NCBI GenBank assembly: GCA_964504985.1
Contig: CAZDFU010000003.1
Location: 822 to 64,821, forward strand
Reading direction: 5' to 3'
Source: an uncultured Gammaproteobacteria bacterium
GTDB lineage: Bacteria; Patescibacteriota; Microgenomatia; Daviesbacterales; UBA10151
DNA: 64,000 bases
Part shown: positions 5,466 through 56,789 of the stretch, in pieces
Position numbering within the stretch: position 1 is the stretch's first letter
How the letters are laid out: every line of letters starts with the position of its first letter
Notes under the pieces: model-generated
Database searches by the model: none
What the model saw: only the letters and a program-made list of their open reading frames with translations
Told to the model about the DNA's origin: nothing
Made by a program: the position numbers and the translations under genes

Positions 5466-5474
5466 AGTTTTCCT

Positions 5475-18267: not shown

Positions 18268-18349
18268 AAAATTTAATGTGGTTTTGTTGGCTTAAGGATT
18301 AAGTCAAATACCCTAGGTGTCAAGCTAGTCCACCTCCCAGGTGGGATTC
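18268..18349 (+). repeat. Short palindromic repeat family 1, copy A (tgtggttttg...ccctaggtgtcaagctagtccacctcccaggtgggatt)
   Basis: Shares an 80-bp similarity block with 19821-19910 and core with 33931-33998 and 47701-47768. Contains hairpin CCACCT-CCC-AGGTGG. Confidence 0.7.
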
Positions 18350-18352
18350 TTG

Positions 18353-19885
18353 TTACAGGCTGTTTAATTTGGTGGCCAGGGAATCTTGTTCTTCATTTAG
18401 CTTTTCATCCTGCTTAACCATTTGATTTTCTGCCTCAGTTAACCACACATTTGCCTCAAGTTTAGAAATAACAGCGGAGGCTATATTTATTCTTTGGGAA
18501 ATAATTTCGTTCATCCTATCAATATCTCTTTTATTTTTACTGTAAAAATCTGGATATTCTTTTAAATTTGCCCAATTAGGTTGAATACTTTTTAAGTCAC
18601 TTAATAATTTTTTCCAGGGGTTGATAGTTTCCTGGTCATAATTTGGTGGGACATAGCCTGCTAAATGTCCAACTACTATTTGGGCTGGGCAGCCATTCAG
18701 CTGCCCCTCAACTTCTGCAATACCTATATCCTGAAAATCCTGGTTTAATAGGAATTTTTTTGAGTCTGGGAATGAGAATTGATTTTCTATTAATTCCTCT
18801 GCTTCATAATAGCCTAAAGCAGATGTTTCCCCATAAGTAATATTGGAATACCCTGCATCTGAGAGGGCTTTTTTCATGGTATAACCACTTCTGGTGGCCT
18901 CAAAAGAGAGGTCATTATATTTAAGGCTTATTTTGCCTCTGCTGGCAGCTGATGTTTCAAGTCTGGTCTGATATCTTAAGGGACCGGCACCTGCTTCTCT
19001 TCTTTTTTGGTTTAATAATTCTAAATAACGGTTTTTATCCAGCTTAATTTTTGAGATTTCTTCAAGATCTTTGTCAGTTTTTCTCCAATTTTTATCTAGT
19101 GTGTCTTTTTGTTTTTTCAAAGGGATAACATGGTCTATATCTTTAAACTCTATCAGACCCAGTGTGTGCCTTGAATCCCCGCTTCCCTTTCTATTGTCCC
19201 CCATAACAAATAATTTTCCAGCAGGAACTGTCAGGCTTTTGCAGTCAGCTAAAAACTCTCCCCCAAAAGTAGACCTGGCTTTAAAAATATATGGTTCTTT
19301 TTGAGGCTTACCATTTAAAAGTAATACCCCGTCTTTTATTTCTAATGTATCTGCAGGCAGTGCAATAACTCTTTTAACAAAACCTCTTGGTTTATCCCCG
19401 TCTTTGGTAGTTATTTCTGCTGTTTTAAAATTATAAAAAGAGACTATATCCCCTCTTTCTATTTCATAAGAAAATAATTTATATCCAAATAAATTAAGAC
19501 CAGAAGGATACCTCATCATTCCAGTAGTGCCTACTATTTCCTTTGATTGTTCCTCTGGGGTTTTGCCTTCACCTTTGGGAAAAGTGGGATACATTGACCC
19601 AGTTCCTGACAGTGGGATATAATCTTCCACCAGGTTTAATTTGTCCAATACTAAAAAAGCAGTTAATTTATATGAACTAATCCAAACAGGTACCAAAATC
19701 AAGAGGGTTATTAGGGCAAGAAAGGGCAGAAGAAATCTTTTTACAATTAAATATCCAATTGTTACAAAACTAAAATATTTTTTCATGAACTTACTAATAA
19801 TATAATAATTTATTGTGGTTTTGATGGGTTTTGCTATCCTTAGTCCTAGGGATACAGAAATTTCCCTAGGTGTCAACCTGGGCAC
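18353..19885 (-). CDS. Signal peptidase I fused to C-terminal CAP/SCP (YkwD-like) domain
   Basis: N-terminal TM. SGSMYPTF (box B Ser), KRVIALPADTL (box D Lys), GDNRKGSGDSR (box E). C-terminal half LLNQKRREAGAGPL...YGETSALGYYEAEELIENQFSFPDSKKFLLNQDFQDIGIAEVEG resembles CAP/PR-1 domain. Confidence 0.6.
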   Translation of the reverse strand: MPRLTPREISVSLGLRIAKPIKTTINYYIISKFMKKYFSFVTIGYLIVKRFLLPFLALITLLILVPVWISSYKLTAFLVLDKLNLVEDYIPLSGTGSMYPTFPKGEGKTPEEQSKEIVGTTGMMRYPSGLNLFGYKLFSYEIERGDIVSFYNFKTAEITTKDGDKPRGFVKRVIALPADTLEIKDGVLLLNGKPQKEPYIFKARSTFGGEFLADCKSLTVPAGKLFVMGDNRKGSGDSRHTLGLIEFKDIDHVIPLKKQKDTLDKNWRKTDKDLEEISKIKLDKNRYLELLNQKRREAGAGPLRYQTRLETSAASRGKISLKYNDLSFEATRSGYTMKKALSDAGYSNITYGETSALGYYEAEELIENQFSFPDSKKFLLNQDFQDIGIAEVEGQLNGCPAQIVVGHLAGYVPPNYDQETINPWKKLLSDLKSIQPNWANLKEYPDFYSKNKRDIDRMNEIISQRINIASAVISKLEANVWLTEAENQMVKQDEKLNEEQDSLATKLNSL

Positions 19886-19910
19886 CTCCCAGGTGGGATT
19901 TACCGTTTAA
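19821..19910 (+). repeat. Short palindromic repeat family 1, copy B
   Basis: tgtggttttgatgg...gaaatttccctaggtgtcaacctgggcacctcccaggtgggattt. Overlaps the last codons of the 176-aa ORF. Confidence 0.7.
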
Positions 19911-27573: not shown

Positions 27574-27822
27574 ATGTCCAAACAAAAAGGTGCAATTGTA
27601 CCTTTAGTTTTAATTATAATCATTATTATCCTGGCTGTTTTAGCTTTTATATTTATATCACAAAATAAGTTCAATCAAACTAATGAGTCAAAATCTCCCC
27701 AAACAGCTGCCGGTTCAAGTTATCTTAAAGAACAATATCAGAACCCTTTTGAAGAAAAAAGCCAATATGAAAATCCATTCTCAGAAGATTCTTACCAGAA
27801 TCCTTTTGATAACCTTAAATGA
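27574..27822 (+). CDS. Small single-TM protein with Q-Y-x-NPF tripeptide repeats (82 aa)
   Basis: N-terminal TM then QYQNPFEEKSQYENPFSEDSYQNPF; stop overlaps next start. Confidence 0.45.
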   Translation: MSKQKGAIVPLVLIIIIIILAVLAFIFISQNKFNQTNESKSPQTAAGSSYLKEQYQNPFEEKSQYENPFSEDSYQNPFDNLK

Positions 27823-29012
27823 TTAAAATATTTAAAATTACCAGGACTGGGGTTGTGGCTTTTTTGGCAGCCTTAATTTTGAGTTTTATCTTTGTTTCTT
27901 TAACTTATGCACATGAAGGTGAAGACCATGAAGAAGAAAACCCTGAACAGGCGGCTAAAAAATATAATCTAACTTTTCCTATAACAGAACTTGGGGGATG
28001 TCAAAATTATGCAGCCTGCAGGTCTTATTGTGAGTCTGAGGCTAATAGGGATCAGTGTACTTCCTATGCCAAGAAAAAGGGATTCTACCAGGAGAGAAGA
28101 AAAGAAGAAGGAATAATTAATGAAGCTAAATCCCAGTTAGGTTGTGATTCAGAATCCTCCTGCAGGGCTGTTTGTGAGAAAGAAGAAAATATTGAAAAGT
28201 GTTCTGCATTTGCCCAAAAGCATAATTTAGGGGGGCCCAGAGGAAAGCCGGGTGATAGGAATATATTACAAAAAGCCAAAGAAATTTTGGGATGTGATTC
28301 AGAGCAGTCTTGCAGGTCAGTTTGTGAGAATCCTGCCAACCAGGACAAATGTTCTACTTTTGCTGCTCAAACTGGTTTAGGTGGAGGGGTTAGAAGGGTT
28401 GGGCCTGGAGGGTGTAATTCTGAAGAAAGCTGCAGGAGTTTTTGTGAGAAAAATATTGATGAATGCAGAAAGTTTGGAGGAGGGCCCCCTGAGGGGTATG
28501 ATAGTGGCAGAAAAGGTCCTGGCGGGTGTAATTCTGAGGAGTCTTGTAATGCTTATTGTCAGTCTAATCCAGAAGAGTGTGCAAAATTAGGAGGAGGTAC
28601 TGGAAATTTTGGAGGAGGAAGAAGGGGTCCTGGAGGGTGTGATAGTGAGGAATCTTGTAGAAGATATTGTGAGGCAAATCCTAAAGAATGTGGTATTGGT
28701 GAAAGAGGTGTTAGAGATCAAAGAGAGGGTTTTGAAAGAGAAGGAAGAAGGGATTTTAGACCTGAGAATAATCAGAGACCAACAGAAAATTATCAAAGAG
28801 AAGAATTTAGGTCTTCCCAGGAGTACCAAAGACCAGTTGAGGATCAGTACCAGCAGCCTCAAACATATGAACTCCCCAGACAAGACACTCAGCCTGCTGA
28901 ATCTTTTCAAAGGGAATCATCATCAGATACTTTCACTAATACAACCCAAGAAGTTAGAGGGGCTTCAACAGGAAGAAATCTATTCCAACAAATCTTAGAT
29001 TTCTTGTTTTAG
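27819..29012 (+). CDS. Secreted/anchored protein with six tandem ~45-aa four-cysteine repeats and Q/E/R-rich tail
   Basis: N-terminal hydrophobic segment. Repeats G-C-[DN]-S-E-x-S-C-R-x-x-C-E-x(5,6)-C-x-x-[FY] occurring six times. Confidence 0.6.
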   Translation: MIKIFKITRTGVVAFLAALILSFIFVSLTYAHEGEDHEEENPEQAAKKYNLTFPITELGGCQNYAACRSYCESEANRDQCTSYAKKKGFYQERRKEEGIINEAKSQLGCDSESSCRAVCEKEENIEKCSAFAQKHNLGGPRGKPGDRNILQKAKEILGCDSEQSCRSVCENPANQDKCSTFAAQTGLGGGVRRVGPGGCNSEESCRSFCEKNIDECRKFGGGPPEGYDSGRKGPGGCNSEESCNAYCQSNPEECAKLGGGTGNFGGGRRGPGGCDSEESCRRYCEANPKECGIGERGVRDQREGFEREGRRDFRPENNQRPTENYQREEFRSSQEYQRPVEDQYQQPQTYELPRQDTQPAESFQRESSSDTFTNTTQEVRGASTGRNLFQQILDFLF

Positions 29013-29167
29013 AATTCTTGTAATGATTCTAAATAGAAACAGTACTTGAGGGTCTGGAGGGAAGATAGATAGCGTTCCTTTCGGGAAACTAACAGCGCAA
29101 GCGCGGTACTAATCCTTCATCGTCGATAATTGTAAAGATTGTCTGGATAAATCCAGCCAACCTTAAA

Positions 29168-29210
29168 AAGTCCACCTGATAGACGTTAGTCTAACCTTAA
29201 TTCCTAATTT
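29168..29210 (+). repeat. Direct repeat flanking mazEF cassette (left copy)
   Basis: aagtccacctgatagacgttagtctaaccttaattcctaattt; ~35/43 identical to 29929-29973. Confidence 0.6.
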
Positions 29211-29247
29211 TCTTTTGAAGAGCTGGTGATATATAAACAACAGTCCT

Positions 29248-29622
29248 TTAGGTAAACAATTTACGAACATCCTCTAAAATCTTACTCTTAATTGTTGGAG
29301 TTAATTGACCAACGGCATCTTTAATAATAGTCGCATCTGCTGTAAATAATTTATCTGGTCGTACAAAACTTACGACTGGTAAACTACCCTTAGAAAAATC
29401 TTCAGATTTAATACTGATAGCTATTTTGCTTGTATAAGGTTTTGAGGTAATTTGGCATAAAATAAGAAAATCTTGATGCTTCGCATTAAAATTATCAAAC
29501 TCAACATTTGCTAAAACCAATGCTGGACGAACTTTCCGGCCTTTTAAATTGGAGAATGGAAATGTAACTAAAACAACACTTCCTACTCGCAGAGAAGTTC
29601 TGTTTACTGTAAGCTTGCCCAT
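29248..29622 (-). CDS. mazF: MazF/PemK-family endoribonuclease toxin
   Basis: SH3-like toxin fold cues: VVLVTFPF, KVRPALVLAN, QDFLILCQITS. Overlaps upstream antitoxin gene. Confidence 0.7.
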   Translation of the reverse strand: MGKLTVNRTSLRVGSVVLVTFPFSNLKGRKVRPALVLANVEFDNFNAKHQDFLILCQITSKPYTSKIAISIKSEDFSKGSLPVVSFVRPDKLFTADATIIKDAVGQLTPTIKSKILEDVRKLFT

Positions 29623-29843
29623 GCTGTATCCTCTTCAGGTCTATCCCAATCAACCGCAAGAGTTTTTTCAGATAGCGATAATGTAGTTGTTGCAGAGGTA
29701 CTCTTTACAGGTGCTGGAACAATTCTTATTTCACCCTTTTTTACCTGTAATTCAACCTGTTCCCCAAGGCCACTTTCTTCAAGCGCGGGTTTAGGTATAC
29801 GTATTCCACGAGAATTTCCTATTTCAATAATTGTTGTTATCAT
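29604..29843 (-). CDS. mazE: MazE/AbrB-family antitoxin
   Basis: SpoVT/AbrB swapped-hairpin motif IIEIGNSRGIRIPKPAL; 19-nt overlap with toxin. Confidence 0.65.
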   Translation of the reverse strand: MITTIIEIGNSRGIRIPKPALEESGLGEQVELQVKKGEIRIVPAPVKSTSATTTLSLSEKTLAVDWDRPEEDTAWASLQ

Positions 29844-29928
29844 ACTTCGATTTCACTCAGTATGACCCTGAGTATTTGTCGAATGGGTCATAGTAATTAC
29901 ATTGTACCTACGCAGAATAATGTTGTCA

Positions 29929-29973
29929 AGTCCATCTGGTAGACATTAGTCGGACTATTATCCCTAATTTATT
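29929..29973 (+). repeat. Direct repeat flanking mazEF cassette (right copy, in mazE promoter region)
   Basis: aagtccatctggtagacattagtcggactattatccctaattt. Confidence 0.6.
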
Positions 29974-30097
29974 ATTTGACGAGTTTGCATTATATCGGTC
30001 GCTTCCTAGTTCTTCTTGATCCTTTCTTTTAATTGCTCAGAAGTTAACTTCTTAAATGTTTGGATAGCAATATTGGCTAGCTTATTTTAGTGTCTAT

Positions 30098-32326
30098 CTA
30101 AGCCCTTAACTTTATACCGGCTTCAATCATTGTTTGAATAAATACTTGCGTTCCTTCTTCAGTTAGTACTTCTATGGGGCCTCTGGGAGATTCAAATCTA
30201 TCGGCGAAATATTCAGGATGGTTCTCTTTAAATGATATGATCACTTTTCTGGCTTTATCCACAACTAGTGGTTGAGTGCCTTTAAATAAACGCTTTAAAT
30301 TTTTATGATTTAATCGTAAACCAACGTCAGGTTTATCTGTTGATTTTTTCGGCTCATTATTTTTAATTCTAACCCCCATATCTACCATAGCTTGGATAAA
30401 TCTTTCCCTACCCTCAGCTGTGATAACCTCAACTTCAATTCCGCCGTTACTTCTTCTGCTTAAGTATTCAGGATGTTGATCATGAAGCTGATTTTTTACC
30501 TGATCTACAAATTGGAGTATCCTATTATGGTGGCCTTTAAATATTAGCATTAATCCTCTCTGTGATAAGACTAAATCTGTATCCTGCACTACTTCTAGTT
30601 GATGATCCCTTAATTTTACTCCGGCTTCGAGCATTGCTTTTATAAAAACAGCTCTACCTTCAGTTGTCACAACATCGACCTCTCGAAAATGTTTATTTAT
30701 CCTTTTTGTAAAATACTCTGGATGCTCATCCTCTAATTGTTTTTTGACCCGAGAATATAGTTGAAACAATCTTCTATAATCACCAACAAAGATAACGTTG
30801 TCTGGACTTTGTGGAGACAATACTATTTCACCATCTTTAACATCAAATAAACCTTTCCTTTCTAACTCTCTTATGGGCTTTACATCAGCTTGGGTTTTGA
30901 AGTTGGTAATAGCTGGTAGATTTTTAAGTCCTTCGATGTCAGTTTCTGGACCTAAATACAATAATCCATTTTCCAGTTGTCTTACATTTCCTTTCATCCA
31001 CATTGCCATGTTATATGACCAAGAATATTGGCTGGTTTGATACAAACAGTCAACTATAACTCCAAATAGTTTTCCATTAGTTCTTCTGGCTAGTCTTCCT
31101 GTATATTGGGTATATCTTAGTTCGGAATCTGTTGGTGAAGCCCATACTAGAACTTCGGTGAATGGAGCATCAAATCCCTCTGATGCTACATAGGGTGAAA
31201 TTAATACTTGTATTGCTTTTTCGTCAGCCTCTGGTAGTTTATATCTCTCAATTGAATCTATAGCTGGAATTTGTTCAGTATGTATAGCTTTAGCGACTGG
31301 TTTATTTATAGCAACTCCAACTTTGATGCCCCTATCATATAAAAGTTGAGCTAATTCCTCTGCTTCCCATACATAATTACAAGCTATAACTGTTTTATAA
31401 TTCTTTCCAGAAGGATCTTTAATGATATTGGATACTCGATCAGCTATAAATGGTCTTAATTCAGGGCTCTTTTTAAGTAATTGCTCCAGTTTTTTATAAT
31501 CTATTCTCCCGAGTGCTGTTACTGGAATTTCATCAACAAGATCTTGGGTGTTAATTTGAAGTCCTAAGAGAGGAGGTAAAAATCTTTCTTCTTGAGCTTC
31601 AGGTAAAGGTAAAGATTCAATAACAATAAATCCATATTGCTCAGGCCTTTTCATGCTACCCGAGTGACGATAAGGAGTAGCGGTAAAACCAACTAATCTA
31701 TTGAACTGATTGATAGATTCTAATCTAGGTTCTGTTCCAACATTATGGGCTTCGTCAATAACTACCAAATCATAATCTTCGGGATTTAGAGTTCCTTTGT
31801 TTAATGCTGACTGAACAGTTTGTATCGTTGCGATTTGTACATTGACATCATCACTTTTACCATATTTACCAATAGTATAGAGAAAGGAGTGAGATTCTTC
31901 TAGAAGTCTCTCCTCCTCTTCGGTATTAGTTGTTTCATCAGTTAGACTTTGGTCTTGTTCTGATTCAATATAACTAGGTTCTTTCTCATTTTGTGGAGGT
32001 TGTTGATAACCAGATAATGAATCATGAGCCTGATCTACTAATACAAGCTTTGTCCCCGCTACAACTAAAACTTTAGAATCAGGCTTTCTTCTTATTTGTT
32101 GCTCTATAACCAAATGAGTAATTCTCCCTTTACCAATACCGGTTGCCATAGCAATCATAGGAAAATGATCTTCAGGGTTCTTGTTATCTAAATAATCCCT
32201 CAATTTTGAGGCTGCTCTTTCTTGTAGGAAATTTAACCTTTGTTGCTGATCAGGTGTAAGTAATCCATCTCGGTTAATTTCTCCTGTTGAGCCATAAATA
32301 ATACGTTCTGCTCCATTATCTACCAT
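30098..32326 (-). CDS. Superfamily 2 DEAH-box helicase with three tandem ~85-aa C-terminal repeats
   Basis: Motif I AMATGIGKGRITH, motif II VVIDEAHNVG, motif III GFTATPYR, motif VI QYTGRLARR. C-terminus carries three repeats of HPEYF-x-R-x(6)-EV-x-T-x-EGR-x-x-FI-x-AM-x(3)-G-x-KLR. Confidence 0.75.
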   Translation of the reverse strand: MVDNGAERIIYGSTGEINRDGLLTPDQQQRLNFLQERAASKLRDYLDNKNPEDHFPMIAMATGIGKGRITHLVIEQQIRRKPDSKVLVVAGTKLVLVDQAHDSLSGYQQPPQNEKEPSYIESEQDQSLTDETTNTEEEERLLEESHSFLYTIGKYGKSDDVNVQIATIQTVQSALNKGTLNPEDYDLVVIDEAHNVGTEPRLESINQFNRLVGFTATPYRHSGSMKRPEQYGFIVIESLPLPEAQEERFLPPLLGLQINTQDLVDEIPVTALGRIDYKKLEQLLKKSPELRPFIADRVSNIIKDPSGKNYKTVIACNYVWEAEELAQLLYDRGIKVGVAINKPVAKAIHTEQIPAIDSIERYKLPEADEKAIQVLISPYVASEGFDAPFTEVLVWASPTDSELRYTQYTGRLARRTNGKLFGVIVDCLYQTSQYSWSYNMAMWMKGNVRQLENGLLYLGPETDIEGLKNLPAITNFKTQADVKPIRELERKGLFDVKDGEIVLSPQSPDNVIFVGDYRRLFQLYSRVKKQLEDEHPEYFTKRINKHFREVDVVTTEGRAVFIKAMLEAGVKLRDHQLEVVQDTDLVLSQRGLMLIFKGHHNRILQFVDQVKNQLHDQHPEYLSRRSNGGIEVEVITAEGRERFIQAMVDMGVRIKNNEPKKSTDKPDVGLRLNHKNLKRLFKGTQPLVVDKARKVIISFKENHPEYFADRFESPRGPIEVLTEEGTQVFIQTMIEAGIKLRA

Positions 32327-32463
32327 AATTAAACGTATTATACCAAAATTGGGAGAATTTATAAACCTATAGTGTAATTGTCCTCTTAGTGGACACTGTT
32401 CGAACCATTATTCTTAACTTAAGTTTTAGTGAGGCTGAAGTATACAGACATTTACAGTTTTAA

Positions 32464-33300
32464 TTAAGATTCCATTTTAACTTCAAGCGGAAATTCATAA
32501 CCCCTTTTTGTTTTAACAAGAACTTTATAAACATTAGTACCTCCAACTGGTCTAAAACGATTCTGTTCTGGACTAGTTCTAGGTTCGATGTCAGAGAATA
32601 ATACTGAAATATCCCTAATATCTTCTGCTTCTATTTTTAATAGCTCATTTGGCTTCAGATTAGTATTAAGGGGATCGTCAAAAACAAAGTAAGTACTTCT
32701 CCAGGTTTCATTACCAGTATTTCCCTCCATTATTGCTCCGATATAATCTGATTTTGAACTGTTGGAGTTATCAATATGCAGGAATACCCGAAAGCTGAAA
32801 AACATATATCTTCCAGCAGAGTAGTTTTGCCAGCTAGTTGTATCTACTTTTAAGGTGACATCAATTGAAGGTTTTGGTTTCTTTTTTTCTGCCCACAATT
32901 TCTCCGAGGATTGCAGATTCCCTAACTCACCATGTTTAAGACACTCCTCAAGTAGAGTATTCATGCAATGGTTGGGTGGTAAATCCCCAATGTAATCTCT
33001 TTTGTTCGAAATTTGGGTATGAAGTGATGAATCCCCCTCATTCCGGAATTCTTGAAGTTTCTTAATGTTTGCTCTTTTAGAATTGTCCCAAGGGTATTGT
33101 GATACAACTTCAGTAAAGGTATTGAATCCCAAAAGAGGCGGTATGGTATCAATAATAGCTCGGAGTAAAGGAGCAGCAACGTATATAGCTTTACTATTCT
33201 TATTTAGGCCTTTTAACTGTTGAATTAATTTCGAATATTCAAAAGGACCCACCTTCTCTTTGAATTTTTGAATAATTCTTAAATCTACATAGCTACTCAT
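32464..33300 (-). CDS. Hypothetical protein (278 aa) immediately upstream of helicase; candidate HamA-like partner
   Basis: Clean ORF co-oriented with helicase and 138-nt gap. No motif recognised by eye. Confidence 0.4.
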   Translation of the reverse strand: MSSYVDLRIIQKFKEKVGPFEYSKLIQQLKGLNKNSKAIYVAAPLLRAIIDTIPPLLGFNTFTEVVSQYPWDNSKRANIKKLQEFRNEGDSSLHTQISNKRDYIGDLPPNHCMNTLLEECLKHGELGNLQSSEKLWAEKKKPKPSIDVTLKVDTTSWQNYSAGRYMFFSFRVFLHIDNSNSSKSDYIGAIMEGNTGNETWRSTYFVFDDPLNTNLKPNELLKIEAEDIRDISVLFSDIEPRTSPEQNRFRPVGGTNVYKVLVKTKRGYEFPLEVKMES

Positions 33301-33589
33301 GCGCTTATTTTACCATTAAGCTGGTTTAGAGAGTGATGTTTTATTAATGCTCTTATCAATTTTAGCAATAAATACCTTTTCTGCAGAGTCACCATTTAAA
33401 CTGGTAACTTTAATTTTAACTTTGCTTCTAGAGCTTTAGATAGGTAGGAAAACGGCACTGTAGAAGAAAAAAGAATAATATTACATGCGATTGGTTTAAG
33501 GCTTATTTTAAAAGATAAAAAACTAGAAATAACACCGAGGTCAATGTTCAAAGAGATACAAATTGCAACTGCTTTAGCTTCAAAAGGTT

Positions 33590-34010
33590 CGATTATTGAG
33601 GCATCTGTCCGGAGGGAAGGATTCCCTTCGACTACGCTCAGGGTAAACTGCTCATCCCTCTGATAATATTCGTCTCGTACGCTCGCATTGAGCGAGCTTG
33701 CGAGCCGAAATGTCCGGAGGGAAGGATTCGCACCTTCGCAGGGAAAACCCGGTAGATTTACAGTCTACTGCAATTGACTACTCTGCCACCTCCGGTATGC
33801 CTTATTATATCTTAGGCAAATTGATTGGACAACTTTTAAAATATACTTCTGCGGACTGTAAGTCCTTGAAGATCCCGGTTGTAACCGGGGATCCGCGATA
33901 AACTTTGTTCATCGGGACTGTAATTAAATTAAAATTTCCCTAGGTGCCTGCTCGCCTCGCTCGACGCGAGTCGAAGCGGGCCTAATCCACCCCCCAGGTG
34001 AACAAAGATA
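33590..34010. ncRNA. Candidate structured non-coding RNA region (unassigned family)
   Basis: ~870-bp gene-free interval. Locally GC-rich in an AT-rich genome. Direct repeat of tgtccggagggaaggattc at 33605 and 33709. Perfect hairpin gctcgc-attga-gcgagc. Contains repeat family 1 variant at its 3' end. Confidence 0.35.
33931..33998 (+). repeat. Short palindromic repeat family 1, copy C (variant with 34-nt GC-rich insertion)
   Basis: aaatttccctaggtg...ccaccccccaggtg. Confidence 0.5.
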
Positions 34011-34174
34011 GCCCTATATACTCCTGATGTTTGGGTATCTTCAAGGCGCCAAACAGCTGTTGATTTAGTTAGGAATCCTTCCATGAAAGTTTTTAAAACT
34101 GTAGCCTCAAAAATCCCCAATAGAGCACTGCAGGCAATCGCTTGAACATTAAAAAACTGTTATAATCCCTTAAT

Positions 34175-36730
34175 ATGACCCATGGTTCATGGAAAGCAAG
34201 AAGAGAGCACCAGAGGCTTTGGAGATTTAAATTTCTTTCCAATCTTTCTACTTTCATGCTGGTTCTTGTGATAGGCTTTCTCCTGCTTCTTTTTGGTACT
34301 GTAGTATTCTTTGCAACTCAAATCCCCTCCCCCCAGGATTTAACTAACAGGTCTGTTGCCTCCTCCACCAAAATTTATGACAGGTCAGGTGAACTTTTAT
34401 ATGATATTTATGCAGACCAAAACAGAACCCCTATAAAACTTTCAGATATTCCAGACCATGTTAAAAAAGCCACCATCTCAATTGAAGATAAAGATTTTTA
34501 TAAACATTCAGGCTTTTCTATTGCAGGCATAGCGAGGTCTTTGTTTGAGCTGGTAGTTCACCGCCGGGTGGAAGGCGGGTCTACCCTGACTCAACAATTG
34601 ATTAAGAATGCCCTGCTTTCAGGGGAAAGGACATTAACCCGGAAATTAAAAGAGTTTATTCTGGCTATCCAGGTTGAAAGAGCCTATTCCAAAGACCAGA
34701 TTTTGGAGATGTATTTGAATGAAATCCCTTATGGTGGCACAGCCTATGGTATAGAAGCAGCATCTAACCTATATTTTGGGAAATCAGCCAAAGATCTTGA
34801 TTTAGCAGAAGCAGCTCTTTTAGCAGGTTTACCACAGCGTCCTTCTGTTTATTCTCCTTATGGAACAAGGCCTGAGTTATCCAGATCCAGGCAAAAAGAA
34901 GTTTTAAGAAGAATGGTTGAAGATGACTATATTACAGAGGCCCAGGCTAAGCAGGCTCAGCAACAGCAGTTAACTTACCGTACCAGCCAGACTGAAAAAG
35001 GTTTTAAAGCTCCTCATTTTGTTTTGTATGTGAAAGAAAAGCTGATAGAACAATTTGGAGATAAGATGGTGGAACAAGGAGGCTTAAGAGTTACTACTAC
35101 CCTGGATTATAAATTGCAACAGGCAGCAGAAGAGATAGTTAAAAAAGAAGTTGAGAATTTAGCCTCTGCCAAAGTTGGTAATGGTGCAGCCGTTGTTATG
35201 AACACTAAAACAGGGGAGATTTTATCTATGATAGGCAGCAAAGACTATTTTGGAGCTTCTCTGCCCGAAGGGTGTACTGAGGGAGATTCCTGTATTTTTG
35301 AGCCAAATGTTAATGTGGCAATCCGCGAAAGACAACCTGGTTCTGCTACCAAGCCTATCAATTATGCCAAGGCTTTGGAAAAGGGTTATACAGCAAGCTA
35401 TGTTTATATGGATGTTAAAACAGAATTTCCAGGCGGTGATAGGCCAAGTTATATACCGGTAAACTATGATGTGCAATTTCATGGACCAGTTCAGATGCGT
35501 TTTGCCCTGGCTAATTCCTATAATATCCCTGCTGTTAAAAACTTAGCTTTAGTTGGGGTAAAAGATGTTTTGGAATTAGGTTACAGGATGGGAGTAACTA
35601 CCTGGGAACCTTCTGAGGAGAATGTTAATTCAGTTGGATTAAGCCTGACTTTGGGAGGAAGAGAGGTCAGGCTTCTGGATTTAACAACTGCTTTTGGGGT
35701 TATGGCCAATAAAGGACGCCAAATTGACCCTATTTCTATTTTGAAAGTTACTGATTCAAAGGGTAAGAATTTGTTTGAATATCACCAGTCTGAGGGACGG
35801 AGGATCCTGGATGAAGGAATTACCTTTATTATTTCTGATATCCTTTCAGATAATGGAGCAAGAACTGCTGCTTTTGGTTCTAACTCTGTTTTAAATATCC
35901 CCGGAAAAGTAGTGGCAGTGAAAACAGGTACAACAGATGAGAAAAGGGATAATTGGACAGTGGGATTTACCCCTTCTGTGGTGGTAGGGGTTTGGGTGGG
36001 AAATAATGATAATTCTGTAATGAGCCCTGCTGTTTCCTCAGGGGTAACAGGCGCTTCCCCTATCTGGAATAAGATTATGAGGGAGGTTTTGAAAGATAAA
36101 CCCAATGAGTCATTTGAGAAACCTTCTAATGTGAATCAAATGGAAATAGATGGTTTAATGGGTGGCAAGCCACATGGAGGATCTCCAGCTAGAAAAGAAT
36201 ATTATATTTCAGGCACAGAACCAAAGGGTGAAGCTCCTGCTTATCAGAGAGGTAAAGTTTGTAAAAATAATCCTCATAGATTAGCAAATGATGGTGAGGA
36301 TGCTGATGAGAAAGATGTGATAGTCCTAAAAGAAAATGATCCAACAGGGGCTAATAAATGGCAAAAAGGTATTGATGATTGGGTTTTAACTGCAGCTGAT
36401 GGCAGGTTAGTTGGGGCTTCCAAAGGTTGTTCTGGAGTTCCTGGGTTCACAGCTGGAAGTGGAGGGGTTATTGAAATTGTTAATATCCCCAATGGGGCTA
36501 ATGTGCCTAGAGTGTTTGATGTTTTAGCCAAAGCCAATTCCCCTGCAGGAGTAAAAAAGGTTGTCTGGCAAATAGATGGAAGCAATAAATCTACTCAAAC
36601 TTCTGAGCCATTTGCCCTGCATGTAGAATTTCCTGAAGGAGACAAGGGCTCCCATACTATTTCAGTTACTTTAGAAGATAACAATGGAGCCTCACATTCC
36701 ACCACAATAGGTGTTTCTCTCAACCTCTAG
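34175..36730 (+). CDS. Bifunctional class A penicillin-binding protein (glycosyltransferase GT51 + transpeptidase) with C-terminal extension
   Basis: N-terminal TM. GT51 motifs ISIEDKDFYKHSGF, GGSTLTQQL, RKLKEF. TPase SATKP (SxxK), SYN, KTGTT. C-terminal ~200 aa extra domain. Confidence 0.9.
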   Translation: MTHGSWKARREHQRLWRFKFLSNLSTFMLVLVIGFLLLLFGTVVFFATQIPSPQDLTNRSVASSTKIYDRSGELLYDIYADQNRTPIKLSDIPDHVKKATISIEDKDFYKHSGFSIAGIARSLFELVVHRRVEGGSTLTQQLIKNALLSGERTLTRKLKEFILAIQVERAYSKDQILEMYLNEIPYGGTAYGIEAASNLYFGKSAKDLDLAEAALLAGLPQRPSVYSPYGTRPELSRSRQKEVLRRMVEDDYITEAQAKQAQQQQLTYRTSQTEKGFKAPHFVLYVKEKLIEQFGDKMVEQGGLRVTTTLDYKLQQAAEEIVKKEVENLASAKVGNGAAVVMNTKTGEILSMIGSKDYFGASLPEGCTEGDSCIFEPNVNVAIRERQPGSATKPINYAKALEKGYTASYVYMDVKTEFPGGDRPSYIPVNYDVQFHGPVQMRFALANSYNIPAVKNLALVGVKDVLELGYRMGVTTWEPSEENVNSVGLSLTLGGREVRLLDLTTAFGVMANKGRQIDPISILKVTDSKGKNLFEYHQSEGRRILDEGITFIISDILSDNGARTAAFGSNSVLNIPGKVVAVKTGTTDEKRDNWTVGFTPSVVVGVWVGNNDNSVMSPAVSSGVTGASPIWNKIMREVLKDKPNESFEKPSNVNQMEIDGLMGGKPHGGSPARKEYYISGTEPKGEAPAYQRGKVCKNNPHRLANDGEDADEKDVIVLKENDPTGANKWQKGIDDWVLTAADGRLVGASKGCSGVPGFTAGSGGVIEIVNIPNGANVPRVFDVLAKANSPAGVKKVVWQIDGSNKSTQTSEPFALHVEFPEGDKGSHTISVTLEDNNGASHSTTIGVSLNL

Positions 36731-43652: not shown

Positions 43653-43862
43653 TTAAGGCTTAGGTTCCTGTTTTTCAAATACTTCTAGCTTTCCCACATG
43701 GAATGCGGGAGCCTTAAGTTGTTGTGGCGCATCAATTCTATCAGGCAATTCCCGCCTGACAAATTCAGGACTTATTGGATGCCCAAGCTCGCGTGCTCTG
43801 TTGCTCATATCAGAACCAATATATATAAGTCTTTCTGTCATTTTTACCTCCTTTCTTTGCAT
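43653..43862 (-). CDS. Hypothetical small protein (69 aa); C-terminus encoded by repeat family 2 copy
   Basis: ORF; last 14 codons lie in repeat 43686-43719. Confidence 0.3.
   Translation of the reverse strand: MQRKEVKMTERLIYIGSDMSNRARELGHPISPEFVRRELPDRIDAPQQLKAPAFHVGKLEVFEKQEPKP
43686..43719 (+). repeat. Short palindromic repeat family 2, copy A (tagctttcccacatggaatgcgggagccttaagt)
   Basis: Near-identical to 44243-44276; hairpin cccacat-gga-atgtggg. Confidence 0.7.
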
Positions 43863-44242: not shown

Positions 44243-44276
44243 TAGCTTTCCCACATGGAATGTGGGAGCCTCAAGT
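44243..44276 (+). repeat. Short palindromic repeat family 2, copy B
   Basis: tagctttcccacatggaatgtgggagcctcaagt; abuts tRNA-Val. Confidence 0.7.
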
Positions 44277-47130: not shown

Positions 47131-47889
47131 TCAGCCAAATTTTTTAATTGTGTTGTTGTGGGTTTTGTTTTCCAACTCATCATCAAGCGGGGCAAGATTA
47201 ATTTCTTTTCCATATTTTACCTCTAAAGCTTTTTTCAAAAGCCAGTCAGCTAACTTTGGATTTTTAGGTAAAAGTGAACCATGCATATAAGCCCCAATGG
47301 CATTTTTATAAATACAACCTTCTGTTTGATCTTCACCATTATTACCAAAGCCTTTAGACACCAGTCCTAAAGGAGTTGCCCCCTTTTTAAGAAAAGTTTT
47401 ACCTGAATGATTTTCAAAACCAACTAACTTGCCAAACATTGTATCAATAACAATATTCCCAATCATTCTTTGATCAGAAGCTAAGGTATAGGCTGGGAAA
47501 AGTCCAACTCCTTTAAGTCTGGGGCCTTTATGAGGTTGATAATATTCTCCCAATAGTTGATAGCCTCCACAAATAGAAAGCAGAGGTATCCCCCTTTCTA
47601 CTTCTTTTTTAATAAACTTTCCTTTACCAGAAGTTATTAAATCTTTAGCTACCAGCTCTTGTTGTTGATCCTGCCCTCCCCCAAAAAAATATAGGTCTGC
47701 TTTTTGTCCACCTGGGAGGTGTCTACCTAGTCCACCTGGGAGGTGGACTGCGTTGGTACCTAGGGAAATATTAATAATTTTTACTTTAATTCCCCTCCAC
47801 TGGGCACGTTTTTTTAAGGTAATAATATTGCCTGTGTCTCCATAAATATTCATCAAATCACCATATAAATAACCCACAACAATTTTCAA
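47131..47889 (-). CDS. gatD: Lipid II isoglutaminyl synthase glutaminase subunit GatD (CobQ-like GATase); carries an in-frame repeat-element insertion
   Basis: Collinear with S. aureus GatD (IYGDTGNIITLKKRAQWRGIKV..., ICGGYQLLG catalytic Cys, GFENHSG). 13 extra residues HLPGGLGRHLPGG encoded by repeat family 1 copy. Confidence 0.8.
   Translation of the reverse strand: MKIVVGYLYGDLMNIYGDTGNIITLKKRAQWRGIKVKIINISLGTNAVHLPGGLGRHLPGGQKADLYFFGGGQDQQQELVAKDLITSGKGKFIKKEVERGIPLLSICGGYQLLGEYYQPHKGPRLKGVGLFPAYTLASDQRMIGNIVIDTMFGKLVGFENHSGKTFLKKGATPLGLVSKGFGNNGEDQTEGCIYKNAIGAYMHGSLLPKNPKLADWLLKKALEVKYGKEINLAPLDDELENKTHNNTIKKFG
47701..47768 (-). repeat. Short palindromic repeat family 1, copy D (inverted orientation, inside gatD CDS, hairpin arm duplicated)
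   Basis: Minus-strand reads aatatttccctaggtaccaacgcagtccacctcccaggtggactaggtagacacctcccaggtggac. Confidence 0.7.
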
Positions 47890-47893: not shown

Positions 47894-49207
47894 TTACTCC
47901 TCCTCCCAATAATTTTTTTTAATGTCTGATTTTACCAGTATTCTTTGTAGATCAAGCATGGCTGTATAAGTAGGCAGGATAAATAGCTGCCCTTTTAAGC
48001 CCTTTTGAGCCTCTTTAAGAGCCTTTTTCAGGTTCTCTTCTACCTTTATCTGGTTAATATTAAATCCTGCATATTTGAGCCTGACAGCCATATCATATGC
48101 CCTGGTGCCGGAACAAACAATTTTCAATTCTCCTCTACCGCGGGTTTTCTGATCTTTCACAGAATAGTCTGCGTCTATTTTTAATTTTTCAAACTCCCCA
48201 TCCCAGATCCAGGATACATCTGTTCCATCTGCCAAATTATCATTTAGGGCGAAAAGCAACCTGTCTGCTGGTTTAATCTGCGGGGCAATTGTTTCAAAAA
48301 CCTGGGTAGCACCTGCTGGGTTTTTGATTAGGAAAATATACCCGAAAGGTAATTTTTCTACCCTGCCAAAAGCTGGCTGGTAATTTAAAAGAGAAGAAAT
48401 AATTTTGGCTGCAGAAATGTTTAGGTTAGAGGCACATGCTATGGCAGCTGTAGCATCATATATATGGTAAATACCTGGAATGGGTAGGTTAACAGATAAT
48501 AGTTTATTATTAGTAGGCAGTAGAAAAGAGCTTCCTAAAAGTCCTTTTGTTTTGACTTTTTTTGCTTCAAAATCAGGTTTATACCTTCTTTTTTTCCCTA
48601 TACCCTCCCCTGCTATTTTAGAACCCTCTACCCCAAAAGTTTTAACACGTCCTTTAAAGGCCTCTTTTAGTTTTAAAGTATTGGCATCATCACCATTTAC
48701 CAAAATTATTGTTTCAGGAGAAAGTTTTTTTAATGTCTCACACCACCTTTTAACAATAGTATCTACCTCCCCATACCTGTCCAACTGGTCTCTGAAAATA
48801 TTTAAAAATACCACCATAGCAGGATTCAGTTTAGGAGCAACAGAGTTAAAAGCAGCCTCATCCAACTCCCATATCCCCAGATCATAGTTAAAATTCCCAT
48901 TTGAAATGCGGGAGGCTGAAATTAGGGTTGAGGCTATGCCTCTTTCCAAATTTGAGCCTGTATGGTTTCTGATTACCTTAAGGTTTGATGTTTTGGCAAT
49001 ATGGGCCAGCATTCTGGCTGTGGTGGTTTTACCATTTGTACCAGTGATAATAATATTTTTAGGGATATTAAGACTAAGTTTTTGAACAAGAGAAGGGTCT
49101 ATTTTAAGAGCATATAAACCAGGGGCTGCAGAGCCGCCACTCAACTTTAATTTTCTAACAAAAGAACGGATTAGTTTACCGGCTAAAACTGCAGTGAATG
49201 TTCTCAT
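47894..49207 (-). CDS. murT: Lipid II isoglutaminyl synthase MurT (Mur ligase family + DUF1727)
   Basis: ITGTNGKTTT P-loop, Mur ligase middle domain, adjacent to gatD with 4-nt gap. Confidence 0.8.
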   Translation of the reverse strand: MRTFTAVLAGKLIRSFVRKLKLSGGSAAPGLYALKIDPSLVQKLSLNIPKNIIITGTNGKTTTARMLAHIAKTSNLKVIRNHTGSNLERGIASTLISASRISNGNFNYDLGIWELDEAAFNSVAPKLNPAMVVFLNIFRDQLDRYGEVDTIVKRWCETLKKLSPETIILVNGDDANTLKLKEAFKGRVKTFGVEGSKIAGEGIGKKRRYKPDFEAKKVKTKGLLGSSFLLPTNNKLLSVNLPIPGIYHIYDATAAIACASNLNISAAKIISSLLNYQPAFGRVEKLPFGYIFLIKNPAGATQVFETIAPQIKPADRLLFALNDNLADGTDVSWIWDGEFEKLKIDADYSVKDQKTRGRGELKIVCSGTRAYDMAVRLKYAGFNINQIKVEENLKKALKEAQKGLKGQLFILPTYTAMLDLQRILVKSDIKKNYWEEE

Positions 49208-53654: not shown

Positions 53655-56600
53655 ATGTACAAAGGAAAAATGAAAAAAATATTTCAAAAACTAATATACA
53701 TTTTTGCTGCAGCCTTAATTGTTTTTTACCAGGTTGCGCCTATTGGTTTCTCCCTCAGTACAGTTTTGGCAAAAGATGGCGAGGAAGAAGTTGCTTCTGA
53801 AAATAAAACTGATAACTCAGGTTCCAGTTCAAATGGAGATTCTCAGCCTGAAAGTAATTCATCCGGATCAGGTTCATCTGGGTCTGGTTCATCTGGCAGT
53901 TCTGGGTCTGGCAGCGGATCTTCCGAACCCGCTCCCCAACCTGCAACAACAGAACCTGTACCTGTTGCCACTAATAATGAAGCCGTTCAACAGGAAACTG
54001 CACCAGTAAATATTGTTCAAGAGCAAACCGCACCAGTTAATGCTGTGGAAGTACCGGAAATAATTGCTCCTGTGGTACCTGTAACAAATGAGGTTGAGGA
54101 TGTGAAAAACGGCGGGGTTATTAAAGATGCACCTGGTGATACAGTGAGGCCAACAGATCCAGTGGTAACAACAGAGGCTCAAGCAGGAGCTCTGGCCCCA
54201 GAGACTGCACCGCAAGATCCCATCCCTGCCCAGGCAGACACTTTAGTTGAACCTGTAGAACCCGCCGTAGAAACAGTTACTTCTGCAGTAAACACCATAA
54301 CCGGGCCAGTAGAAACAAGCATTAATACAACATCTGTGAGCAGCCCAACAAGCATTGCTGGTGTAGTTGATCAGGTAAATGGTTTTCCGTCTGCTTATCA
54401 AGACAAATTAGGCATAGCTGTTATCCCCTGCCTTGATGGATCAGACCCTAATTGTGTCTTGCCAGGAGCAGGTGAAGAAGAAGGGTTTGATCCTTCCCAA
54501 CCAACTGCTTTAGGTACTAACTTTCCATCAGAATTTTTCTACTGGATTGCAGAATCTGAACCATTAACTACTCCAAATGGAGGTAAAACTTTTATCAGGA
54601 CAGCTTTAGAAGGAGCCTTCCTGAATGAAGAACCAATCTCAACAGATCAGATGGTCTTTGGCAGAATCAGAGTAACAGGCACAGGTTTAGAACCAAACTC
54701 TACCTACATTGTCACCCATCCTTATGGAATTGATACTTACAAAACAAATGATGTAGGTATTATTGCAAGAGGAGAAGGAACAGAAGATATTGGTTGTGAG
54801 GTCAAGCCTTGTGACTTTACTAAAGCATTAGATAGCAGAATCTTTGATGGGTTCCTACAAATGTCTGAAGGTGCACCAGTTGGTTATCTCGGTGATGCAG
54901 CAACAGCAGCAGAAGTAACAGGAAGTCCTTTAGGCCAAAATTCTTATAGAATTGAAGGCCCAGGTTTACCATTAGGAGGTTTGTTTACCAACCTTTTCAC
55001 TGTAGCAGGTAAATTACTTTCTGGCCTTATTACCCCAATTTCTGTGGAAATCCCAGCTAACCAGCCAGCTCCTGTTAATGAGCAAAATGGAGCGGCGGGT
55101 CCAATTGATGATTCAAATGGGTTTCCTGCATCTTACCAGGATCTTTTGGGTACAACTGTTATCCCCTGCCTTGATGGATCAGACCCTAATTGTGTCTTGC
55201 CAGGAGCAGGTGAAGAAGAAGGGTTTGATCCTTCCCAACCAACTGCTTTAGGTACTAACTTTCCATCAGAATTTTTCTACTGGATTGCAGAATCTGAACC
55301 ATTAACTACTCCAAATGGAGGTAAAACTTTTATCAGGACAGCTTTAGAAGGAGCCTTCCTGAATGAAGAACCAATCTCAACAGATCAGATGGTCTTTGGC
55401 AGAATCAGAGTAACAGGCACAGGTTTAGAACCAAACTCTACCTACATTGTCACCCATCCTTATGGAATTGATACTTACAAAACAAATGATGTAGGTATTA
55501 TTGCAAGAGGAGAAGGAACAGAAGATATTGGTTGTGAGGTCAAGCCTTGTGACTTTACTAAAGCATTAGATAGCAGAATCTTCCAGAGTTTACTGGAATG
55601 GGATGTCCCTCTGCTTAATGGTTATCTGGGTGATGCTATAACTCCACACACTGTTATGGGAAGCCCAACAGGAAACAACTTCTTCAGAATAGAAGGACCA
55701 GGATTGCCTATTGGGGGACTATTAACTAACCTCTTTACAGTAGCAGGAAAATTAGCAGGAGCTATAGGAGGGGTAGTTGATAATATTTTACCAACAGAAG
55801 AGCCTGTTATAGAGGAAGGAACAACTGCTGAGGAAGATATGGTAGAGCCAATTATGGATACAGACCCAGCAGATGAACTTATAGCAGAGGATCTACTTGT
55901 TGGAGGACCTACCGCTGAGGAGGGAACAGGAGAAGACCCAATTAATGAGGCTGAAGATACTCCTGATGCAGAAATTGAAACTCCTGTGGCAACTGAGGAT
56001 ACAGTTAATGAACCCGTGGGGGAGGTAGTAGTTTCCCCTGCTAATGAAGATGAGCAAGAAACAAATGAAGAAGAGCAAGAATCAGAAGAAACAGAAGAAC
56101 CAGAAGCACCAGTTACTGTTATTCCTGGAAATGAAGATGAGGTAGAAGATAATAATGGGACTAATACTGAGGAAGAGGTTATTCAAGAAGAGATTATTCA
56201 AACAGTAGAAACTATCCTTGCAGATCCACTTGACCAGCTTCTTAACACAAACAGCCAGGAAGAAGCATCAGAGCAAGTAACTGCTTTTCTTCAACCAGCT
56301 ATTGTTGAGGCAATAAATAACCAAGCAAACACAACTGAAGATAATACTGTTTTAGCAAGTAATAATTCCTCAGCTGCACAAACAAACAACACCACATCTG
56401 AGTCTGCTGCCAGCTCAAATAATAATTCCAGCTCAGTATCAAATAATACTAGCAGTCAATCATCAAGCTCAGATAATAACCAATCATCTGGTTCAACTAA
56501 CCAGTCATCTGGCGGGATTGAGGCAGGACAAAAAACTAGTGCAGAGGAGGCAAAAACTGGAGAAGAAAATAAAACTCAGGTATTGTCAGTACAAATTTCC

Positions 56601-56789
56601 CAAACCGCAGAAGATAACTCATCTGAGATTTTTGAACAAGCTGAACAGCCTGAGCAACCAGAACAATCAGATTCAAGTGAAGTAACCTCAGAAGAAAAAG
56701 AAGCAGGGAAAAATCCTATAGGCATAGTTTTAGCTCTAACCGGCTTAGCTATCGCAGGAGGGTTTTTCTCCAGACGCTTTATTGTCTAA
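53655..56789 (+). CDS. Large secreted/surface protein (1044 aa) with S/G-rich and acidic low-complexity regions, internally duplicated 142-aa module, C-terminal hydrophobic anchor
   Basis: N-terminal signal/TM. SGSGSSGSGSSG linker. Two identical copies of VIPCLDGSDPNCVLPGAGEEEGFDPSQ...CEVKPCDFTKALDSRIF. C-terminal LALTGLAIAGGFFSRRFIV. Confidence 0.7.
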   Translation: MYKGKMKKIFQKLIYIFAAALIVFYQVAPIGFSLSTVLAKDGEEEVASENKTDNSGSSSNGDSQPESNSSGSGSSGSGSSGSSGSGSGSSEPAPQPATTEPVPVATNNEAVQQETAPVNIVQEQTAPVNAVEVPEIIAPVVPVTNEVEDVKNGGVIKDAPGDTVRPTDPVVTTEAQAGALAPETAPQDPIPAQADTLVEPVEPAVETVTSAVNTITGPVETSINTTSVSSPTSIAGVVDQVNGFPSAYQDKLGIAVIPCLDGSDPNCVLPGAGEEEGFDPSQPTALGTNFPSEFFYWIAESEPLTTPNGGKTFIRTALEGAFLNEEPISTDQMVFGRIRVTGTGLEPNSTYIVTHPYGIDTYKTNDVGIIARGEGTEDIGCEVKPCDFTKALDSRIFDGFLQMSEGAPVGYLGDAATAAEVTGSPLGQNSYRIEGPGLPLGGLFTNLFTVAGKLLSGLITPISVEIPANQPAPVNEQNGAAGPIDDSNGFPASYQDLLGTTVIPCLDGSDPNCVLPGAGEEEGFDPSQPTALGTNFPSEFFYWIAESEPLTTPNGGKTFIRTALEGAFLNEEPISTDQMVFGRIRVTGTGLEPNSTYIVTHPYGIDTYKTNDVGIIARGEGTEDIGCEVKPCDFTKALDSRIFQSLLEWDVPLLNGYLGDAITPHTVMGSPTGNNFFRIEGPGLPIGGLLTNLFTVAGKLAGAIGGVVDNILPTEEPVIEEGTTAEEDMVEPIMDTDPADELIAEDLLVGGPTAEEGTGEDPINEAEDTPDAEIETPVATEDTVNEPVGEVVVSPANEDEQETNEEEQESEETEEPEAPVTVIPGNEDEVEDNNGTNTEEEVIQEEIIQTVETILADPLDQLLNTNSQEEASEQVTAFLQPAIVEAINNQANTTEDNTVLASNNSSAAQTNNTTSESAASSNNNSSSVSNNTSSQSSSSDNNQSSGSTNQSSGGIEAGQKTSAEEAKTGEENKTQVLSVQISQTAEDNSSEIFEQAEQPEQPEQSDSSEVTSEEKEAGKNPIGIVLALTGLAIAGGFFSRRFIV
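54418..55582 (+). repeat. Perfect 427-bp direct tandem duplication (units 54418-54844 and 55156-55582, period 738 bp) within the surface-protein gene
   Basis: Line-by-line identical DNA between the two units. Confidence 0.85.

Follow-up and report, generated by a model that had tools for sequence, protein, structure and literature searches.

Introduction

Short repeated units that end in a copy of the 3' end of a transfer RNA (tRNA) gene, and integrative elements seated at such ends, are the described systems closest to the locus discussed here: a tRNA-Tyr gene and its flanking DNA (interval 33301-34174) in a 64,000-nt stretch of bacterial DNA, the whole of which is called the window. In Escherichia coli K-12, the tyrV gene is followed by 178-nt units at +178, +356, and +534, each of which ends in the last 19 nt of the tRNA-Tyr. 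These rtT repeats (Bosl & Kersten 1991, as cited in PMC3318445) belong to the tyrT operon/rtT system (rttR, RF00391), in which the first unit is annotated as the small RNA (sRNA) rttR. Inserted hairpins are enclosed in this unit by a stem in which GGGGAAGGAT is paired without mismatch to the tRNA-derived ATCCTTCCCC. The function of rttR has been described as still unclear (bioRxiv 10.1101/2024.07.17.603846).

Integrative elements at tRNA 3' ends accrete integrase-less cassettes in tandem, and the enzymes that usually target tRNA genes are tyrosine integrases (PMC4701971). In the streptococcal integrative and conjugative elements (ICEs) found in rumA, attR, one of the two attachment sites that flank an integrated element, lies within a serine integrase gene (PMC4701971). 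A study by Mukai et al. (2017, PMC5370408) described tRNA-Tyr species with archaeal-type identity in the candidate phyla radiation (CPR), and in Microgenomates including Daviesbacteria the variable arm of this tRNA was reported to be present or absent.

We think it likely that the interval is a tRNA-Tyr integration hot spot, made up of the tRNA gene, a tRNA-derived unit, what is left of a serine integrase gene, and a dispersed repeat, and that it is a landing site for mobile DNA and not a new RNA family. The features on which this view is based are collected in Table 1, and the loci of relatives with which the window was compared are designated by L-numbers.

Table 1. Features of the tRNA-Tyr locus and of the DNA downstream of the tRNA (window coordinates)
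Feature	Position	Strand	Basis or remarks
tRNA-Tyr(GUA) gene	33712..33795	-	Rfam tRNA model, ARAGORN, conservation at the locus
Promoter-like site TTGTCC-17-TATAAT	33804..33832	-	consensus scan; ends 9 nt before the tRNA 5' end
Unit u1, pseudo-tRNA, 105 nt	33607..33711	-	alignment to the tRNA; homology to the L094 unit
19-nt copy of the tRNA-Tyr 3' end	33606..33624		partner at 33711-33729; 3' end of u1, abutted by the recombinase stump
Pseudogene, last ~70 codons of a large serine recombinase	33415..33627	+	translation, protein and nucleotide matches
AT-rich spacer	33301..33414		GC ~0.31; separates the recombinase stump from the 278-aa gene start
Cargo of decayed element E1	29970..33414	-	ResIII/superfamily 2 (SF2) helicase 30098-32326 and 278-aa protein 32464-33300
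Element-side arm of E1	29930..29969	-	ends ..GTCTACCAGATGGAC; matches L083, L090, L092, L104
MazE/MazF cassette	29170..29929	-	mazE 29604-29843, mazF 29248-29622, promoter 29900-29929, own arm 29170-29209
Unit u2, degenerate, tRNA-Tyr-derived	29052..29169	-	ends ..CTTCCCTCCAGAC; 40 nt past the stop of the Cys-rich gene
Intergenic repeat copy CCCTAGGTG..CCACCYCCCAGGTG	33935..34007	+	34-nt GC-rich insert; inside inverted repeat 33903-33916 / 33994-34007

The tRNA-Tyr gene

The interval lies between an open reading frame (ORF) of 278 aa (32464-33300, minus strand) and a gene for a class A penicillin-binding protein (PBP; 34175-36730, plus strand) that has Transgly, Transpeptidase, and Big_7 domains. 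The organism belongs to Candidatus Daviesbacteria (CPR, Microgenomates), and the best relatives of its PBP have 68-82% protein identity. A sequence-only reading had described this interval as a long, gene-free, GC-rich gap that is likely to encode a structured RNA of unassigned family. The gap does lack a long ORF, but it is not gene-free, as it holds both a tRNA gene and a recombinase pseudogene. The raised GC content applies to the middle of the interval (0.49 in 33601-34020) and not to 33301-33600, where it is 0.313 (0.373 for the whole window). There is also a structured RNA gene, but it lies on the opposite strand and belongs to a known family, tRNA-Tyr.

The Rfam tRNA model (RF00005) is matched over its full length at 33713-33795 on the minus strand at 55 bits (gathering score, 29), and ARAGORN calls a tRNA-Tyr with anticodon gta and a 7-nt loop. 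The tRNA has a long variable arm, a C1-G72 pair, and A73, and CCA is not encoded. The T loop, UGCGAAU, has a G in place of the usual U55, and the same variant is seen in L089, in L092, and in a displaced tRNA fragment of L084. A tRNA-Tyr gene is found divergently upstream of the PBP gene in ~30 related Candidatus Daviesbacteria loci and is 75-90% identical to that of the window in the four loci that could be aligned over the full length (L002, L004, and L007 among them). The window gene is an ordinary tRNA-Tyr gene, which is predicted to be expressed and aminoacylated, and the promoter-like site upstream of it is a candidate promoter by its match to the consensus.

No difference of substance from the published CPR tRNA-Tyr (PMC5370408) was observed. 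The window gene shares the C1-G72 pair, A73, and the GUA anticodon with the archaeal-type tRNAs; it has the variable arm, which some close relatives are without, and its G55 recurs in L089 and L092, as noted above. The relatives are dimorphic at this locus, with a tRNA-Tyr of 84 nt that has the variable arm or one of 74 nt that lacks it, all with C1-G72, a dimorphism already published for CPR (PMC5370408). L001, L003, L093, L096-L098, L100, L101, L103, L105, L108, and L209 carry the type opposite to that of the window, L002, L004, L007, and others. Fragments of the other type are present just downstream of the gene in L104, L209, and L100, and these leftovers hint at gene replacement.

Other RNA families were sought throughout the window. 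At gathering scores, Rfam returned only five tRNAs in the whole window; at E <= 10 in 33200-34300 it returned the tRNA plus chance-level matches, with no signal recognition particle (SRP) RNA, RNase P, transfer-messenger RNA (tmRNA), 6S RNA, or riboswitch, and ARAGORN found no tmRNA. The motif GUCCGGAGGGAAGG, which had been likened to helix 8 of SRP RNA, has no Rfam support and is the complement of the T stem and acceptor 3' strand of the tRNA-Tyr, while the likeness of other segments to the P4 strands of RNase P is without any supporting Rfam match. Readings by eye as SRP RNA, RNase P, T-box, hammerhead, or C/D-box (K-turn) RNA were dropped because Rfam gave no match above chance.

Nearly all of the interval except the tRNA is both without an Rfam match and not conserved. 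When the interval was compared by blastn to all related loci, the matches were to the tRNA, to the 30-nt end of a dispersed repeat, and to 33415-33624, together with a few short matches; outside the tRNA and the recombinase stump, it matches relatives only in a 32-nt piece that belongs to the unit and in the 30-nt piece of the repeat. Three short ORFs, none of which has a Pfam match, were rejected as genes: those of 63 and 51 aa lack relatives, and in the 67-aa ORF the matches to relatives are confined to the part that runs antisense to the tRNA. An inverted tRNA-Tyr fragment at 33850-33920 (plus strand) was also rejected, as its similarity is no better than that of shuffled sequences (p ~0.06 and 0.95 for the two strands).

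The serine recombinase stump

The second feature of the interval is the stump of a recombinase gene, which was identified by way of a neighbour locus. Residues 458-527 of a 530-aa L214 protein are 83% identical to the translated stump over 70 aa (E = 3e-38), and tblastn agrees. At the nucleotide level, 33415-33624 is 81.5% identical over 211 nt to L213-L216 (E = 2e-51) and 76% identical to L083. The L214 protein has the Resolvase, Recombinase, and Zn_ribbon_recom domains and is therefore a large serine recombinase. All three domains are kept in L214 and L216, and no catalytic integrase domain is left at the window locus. The remaining reading frame is interrupted by a TAG at 33445-33447 and preceded by two more stops (33334-33336 and 33397-33399); translated through the stops, it reads ..FNFASRALDR*ENGTVEEKRIILHAIGLRLILKDKKLEITPRSMFKEIQIATALASKGSIIEASVRREGF.. 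The window element is classed as decayed because only these ~70 stop-bearing codons survive. The stump gave no match to PHROGs or NCBIfam profiles and four short matches only in the representative-protein set.

In L214 and L216, the recombinase ORF is convergent with the tRNA-Tyr and, from the coordinates, ends 30 nt inside the tRNA 3' end. In the window, the last codons (..SVRREGF) are themselves the 19-nt copy of the tRNA end. The junction ..CCTCCGGAC|AGATGCCTCAATAATCGAACC (GGAC|AGATGCCTCAATAATCGAACC) is identical in the two cases; it lies between the stump and the unit copy in the window and between the integrase and the tRNA in L216. The intact recombinase of L216 heads a 7.5-kb element, placed between the tRNA and an arm plus unit, whose genes include an HTH (helix-turn-helix) regulator, HNH, a small terminase, PIN, and TIR. 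A complete tRNA-derived unit comes after the far end of this element, whose sequence is ..GTTTACCAGGTGGAC; the reconstructed attachment site of the free element (attP) would be ..GTTTACCAGGTGGAC|AGATGCCTCAAT..

The overlap of the attachment site with the serine integrase ORF in L214 and L216 is as in the streptococcal rumA ICEs, although those elements, which are unrelated and come from unrelated organisms, target a protein-coding gene in place of a tRNA. An intact 508-aa large serine recombinase with the same three domains (57018-58544, minus strand) overlaps the 3' end of a tRNA-Leu(GAG) gene (56953-57037, plus strand) by 20 nt, so a serine integrase ORF that ends inside a tRNA recurs in the window genome. 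A long repeat of the tRNA-Leu end was not found further along the window.

The tRNA-Tyr-derived units

The direct repeat that had been noticed in the interval, TGTCCGGAGGGAAGGATTC, is exact over 19 nt, with copies 1-2 nt away from the positions first given for them, and zero chance matches of this kind are expected. The perfect hairpin GCTCGC-ATTGA-GCGAGC reported with it is located at 33681-33697. The repeat had hinted at a novel RNA but is a duplication of the tRNA 3' end, and both repeat and hairpin are parts of the unit u1. Read from the tRNA, u1 consists of a GC hairpin (33670-33708) that contains the perfect hairpin, the acceptor-5'-like strand TCAGAGG (33657-33663), a segment that resembles a variable arm, a T arm with a 4-nt loop, and the exact copy of the tRNA 3' end. 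Its local alignment to the tRNA (CGAAGG---GAATCCTTCCCTCCGGAC) has a score that none of 300 shuffled sequences reached, and its body is homologous to the unit that follows the tRNA-Tyr in L094. The more distant unit u2 is degenerate and is a weak, though full-length, nhmmer match to the unit profile (E = 0.17). Its terminal CTTCCCTCCAGAC agrees with the tRNA 3' end at 11 of 12 positions and falls exactly at the break in synteny, and its position, after the arm of an element, is the one seen in L216.

Copies of a genome's own tRNA 3' end (12-19 nt) occur only downstream of the tRNA and on the same strand in the window, L002, L084, L091, and L101. Measured from the tRNA 3' end, they lie at +105 (19/19 identical) and +4660 in the window, +144 in L002, +138 in L091, +142 and +284 in L101 (two identical tandem units), and +1861 in L084; in L216 the distance is +7502. 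More degenerate copies were recognized by eye in L085, L094, and L099, and many other loci are without any unit. The two L101 units (5328-5611) are 142 nt long, 100% identical, and arranged in tandem after a 74-nt tRNA-Tyr, with a strong terminator-like hairpin at the start of each and the last 17 nt of the tRNA at its end.

The units of different species share a layout. An A/T-flanked hairpin directly after the tRNA is followed by an acceptor-5'-like strand, AAGG with a T-loop-like stretch, hairpin 1, CTGTTCG, hairpin 2, and finally the T stem and acceptor 3' strand. Hairpin 2 is a clean stem whose sequence changes from species to species. In L085 and L101, the 5' strand of the unit pairs best with the unit's own 3' strand, and the closing stem tracks the acceptor of the lineage. 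The units are most likely relics of a tandem duplication of the tRNA-Tyr gene.

This layout is also that of the rtT repeats. In both systems, a unit of 105-178 nt lies downstream of a tRNA-Tyr, approximately the last 19 nt of the tRNA are copied exactly, tandem arrays are possible, and a 5' strand is paired with the tRNA-derived 3' strand around inserted hairpins. The systems differ in that a terminator-like hairpin precedes the Daviesbacteria unit, the window copies are degenerate, and the Daviesbacteria units are known here from DNA alone. They also have no match to the RtT covariance model: E. coli gives four matches of 133-137 bits, and at E <= 10 neither the window interval nor the loci that carry units give any. 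Because the model finds nothing in those loci, the resemblance is one of layout and not of family membership, and because each unit derives from the tRNA of its own host, a separate origin is likely.

The parallel raises the question of function. A unit such as u1 might be a functional small RNA like that of E. coli, co-transcribed with the tRNA-Tyr or made just after it and cut by tRNA-processing enzymes at the acceptor/T minihelix, or it might be a landing pad kept by the host to divert integrases from the tRNA. We regard a function of either kind as possible but rather unlikely. It would account for the ordered layout common to several species, for the clean hairpin 2 whose sequence differs by species, for the closing stems that follow each lineage's acceptor in L085 and L101, and for the identical tandem pair in L101. 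Intact units of relatives also fold somewhat better than shuffled sequences in 5 of 6 cases (z -1.5 to -2.7), the E. coli units have the same arrangement and include the sRNA rttR, and the window integrase appears to have used the end of the unit and not that of the tRNA. However, the window units have no excess stability (z = +0.2 for the u1 core and +1.7 for u2), and the acceptor-like closing stem is mismatched in u1 and weak or broken in u2. Co-transcription with the tRNA is disfavored because the terminator-like hairpin stands between the tRNA and the body of the unit. The complementarity of the closing stem may simply be inherited from the duplicated tRNA, many relatives have no unit, the RtT model gave no match, and with only ~8 units available, the MAFFT/RNAalifold alignments were too poor for a trustworthy consensus and RNAalifold found little.

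The 19-nt repeat admits another explanation, in which its two copies are the attL and attR sites of a tyrosine-integrase element that had inserted in the tRNA 3' end and was later deleted down to 86 nt. In length and position, the repeat resembles those typical of tRNA-targeting tyrosine integrases (PMC4701971), and L084 has a 1.86-kb cassette between the tRNA and a ~41-nt 3' half of a tRNA. This explanation is nevertheless improbable. Neither the window locus nor the loci whose genes were examined contain a tyrosine integrase, whole or as a remnant, and the only recombinase seen there is of the serine type; the acceptor-5'-like strand and unit architecture, which are common to other species, would be unexpected in a deletion scar. 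Strand exchange by serine recombinases takes place at a very short core. To our knowledge, these enzymes make no 19-nt duplications, and the repeat is therefore assigned to the unit and not to serine recombination. A scan of viral contigs for the tRNA 3' end gave a single exact match, in L162, which is a chance match in a high-GC phage coding region, and none of 42 matches to the unit motif in these contigs is part of a full unit.

The lineage-specific insertion

An insert of ~4.4 kb (29170-33606) with no counterpart in relatives by synteny separates the tRNA-proximal unit of the window from the conserved Cys-rich gene (27819-29012). In L003, the order is glycosyltransferase, tRNA-Tyr, and PBP, and in L001, the gene for a Cys-rich secreted protein is next to the tRNA-Tyr; neither locus has an insert, whereas in the window the Cys-rich gene, insert, unit, and tRNA-Tyr follow one another. 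The helicase (called with Pfam/PADLOC) and the 278-aa gene of the insert have no counterpart at the locus in any relative, and the 278-aa protein belongs to no Pfam, NCBIfam, or PADLOC family. The AT-rich spacer upstream of its gene has no relatives and no RNA family match and is presumably the promoter region of that gene.

The insert has two arms that both end ..CAGRTGGAC. The arms at 29930-29969 and 29170-29209 are identical to one another at 31 of 40 positions and to the arm at the far junction of L216 at 25/30 and 22/30 positions, respectively. The MazE and MazF genes between them (Pfam MazE_antitoxin and PemK_toxin) belong to a cassette that is 76-77% identical in nucleotide sequence to cassettes found directly after the tRNA-Tyr in L084 and L090 and that has the same promoter. 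In the window, the cassette (29170-29969) is bounded by 40-nt direct repeats. These features suggest that MazEF is an integrase-less cassette moved by serine recombinase elements. On the minus strand, the order is tRNA | u1 | stump, 278-aa gene, helicase, arm | MazEF, arm | u2 | host genes, and all five boundaries end in GGAC or AGAC.

From these comparisons a mechanism can be proposed. The recombinase would recognize the T arm and acceptor end of the tRNA-Tyr, with strand exchange at or near the shared GGAC. The attachment site used in the window would be the unit's copy of the tRNA end and not the tRNA itself. Two insertions, E1 and the MazEF cassette, would have accumulated, with the integrase decaying afterwards. 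As with other elements at tRNA 3' ends that accrete cassettes, a lineage-specific block of defence and toxin-antitoxin genes lies downstream of the tRNA, junction sequences are repeated, and an integrase gene lies beside the junction in the window and its relatives. The locus differs from such elements in that the enzyme is a large serine recombinase and not the usual tyrosine integrase, its ORF stops within the tRNA, the common core has only ~4 nt (GGAC), and the site used is predicted to be a pseudo-tRNA copy and not the tRNA gene.

Several points weigh against the hot-spot interpretation. A near-identical strain with an empty site was not found (the nearest PBP is 81-82% identical), so the boundaries of the insertions rest on comparison between species. 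The position of the crossover within GGAC is a prediction from the junctions, and u1 is judged to be older than the integration from the loci that carry a unit only (L002, L085, L091, L094, L099, and L101). The link between E1 and the stump is positional, as E1 has no catalytic integrase domain. The interpretation offers no mechanistic explanation for the origin of the 19-nt repeat in the unit, which serine recombinases do not create, and it assigns no role to a structured stretch at 33836-34012 (z ~ -4).

The dispersed repeat upstream of the tRNA

The stretch at 33836-34012 folds better than shuffled sequences on both strands (z = -4.0 and -4.2). The sequence-only reading was right to see a GC-rich variant of a window repeat family (CCCTAGGTG...CCACCTCCCAGGTGG) in this part of the interval, and the strong folding arises because an inverted repeat surrounds this copy (Table 1). 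The window contains four further copies, and other Microgenomates loci have variants of the repeat; the family has no Rfam match. Sites of the form CCCTAGGTG-N12-CCACCTCCCAGGTGG, which are mostly between genes, include 18306-18348, 19859-19900, and 47700-47765 (minus strand) in addition to the copy near the tRNA. The repeat can form two mutually exclusive hairpins, and variants CCACCTCNNAGGTGG are found in many Microgenomates loci (L004, L025, L050, L064, and L084-L086).

It could be proposed that this part of the interval is a novel structured RNA or a leader of the PBP gene, with 33836-34012 (plus strand) acting as a regulatory 5' untranslated region. The strong folding would fit such a role, and a weak promoter-like site at 33813-33842 (plus strand) would place the stretch within the transcript. 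We consider this very unlikely. The spacer between the tRNA and the PBP gene is not conserved: its length varies from 50 nt (L003) through 120 nt (L002) to ~500 nt in other relatives, and in L216 it contains a gene; at this locus only the 30-nt end of the repeat matches relatives. There is no Rfam match, and a fold that is symmetric on both strands is what is expected for DNA inverted repeats of a dispersed family. We take the GC-rich sequence on this side of the tRNA for a copy of the dispersed repeat, not for part of a conserved RNA, and saw no evidence of an RNA gene in it.

Other observations in the window

Three further observations concern other parts of the window. Directly after a tRNA-Val(UAC) gene, ATTCGAAGATGGCGGGGGTTCAAATCCCTCAGTACCCAC (63088-63127) resembles a T arm with an acceptor 3' strand and could be a further tRNA fragment or an unusual tRNA that was overlooked. 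A hairpin-forming repeat of 34 nt, TAGCTTTCCCACATGGAATGCGGGAGCCTTAAGT, occurs at 43686-43719, 44243-44276, and 48889-48922, with one copy just downstream of a tRNA-Val(GAC) gene. Finally, a 1044-aa ORF (53655-56789) contains a 300-nt direct repeat that is 92% identical (54357-54656 and 55095-55394).

Implications

For the annotation of this genome, the analysis removes a false candidate for an RNA family, contributes two features (a tRNA gene and an integrase pseudogene), and delimits a small defence/toxin-antitoxin island. For this CPR lineage, it indicates that large serine recombinases target tRNA 3' ends and have ORFs that end inside the tRNA, with two cases in the window. The locus also contains tRNA-Tyr-derived units laid out like the long-unexplained rtT repeats of E. 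coli, one of which appears to have served as an attachment site. There is a small chance that the Daviesbacteria units are a conserved functional element, either an RtT-like small RNA or a decoy attachment site that is kept by the host and spares the tRNA-Tyr. If this were true, the E. coli tyrT/rtT arrangement would exemplify a broader design that has evolved independently, and, should the units prove functional, the role of rtT-type elements could be studied in a second, independent system.

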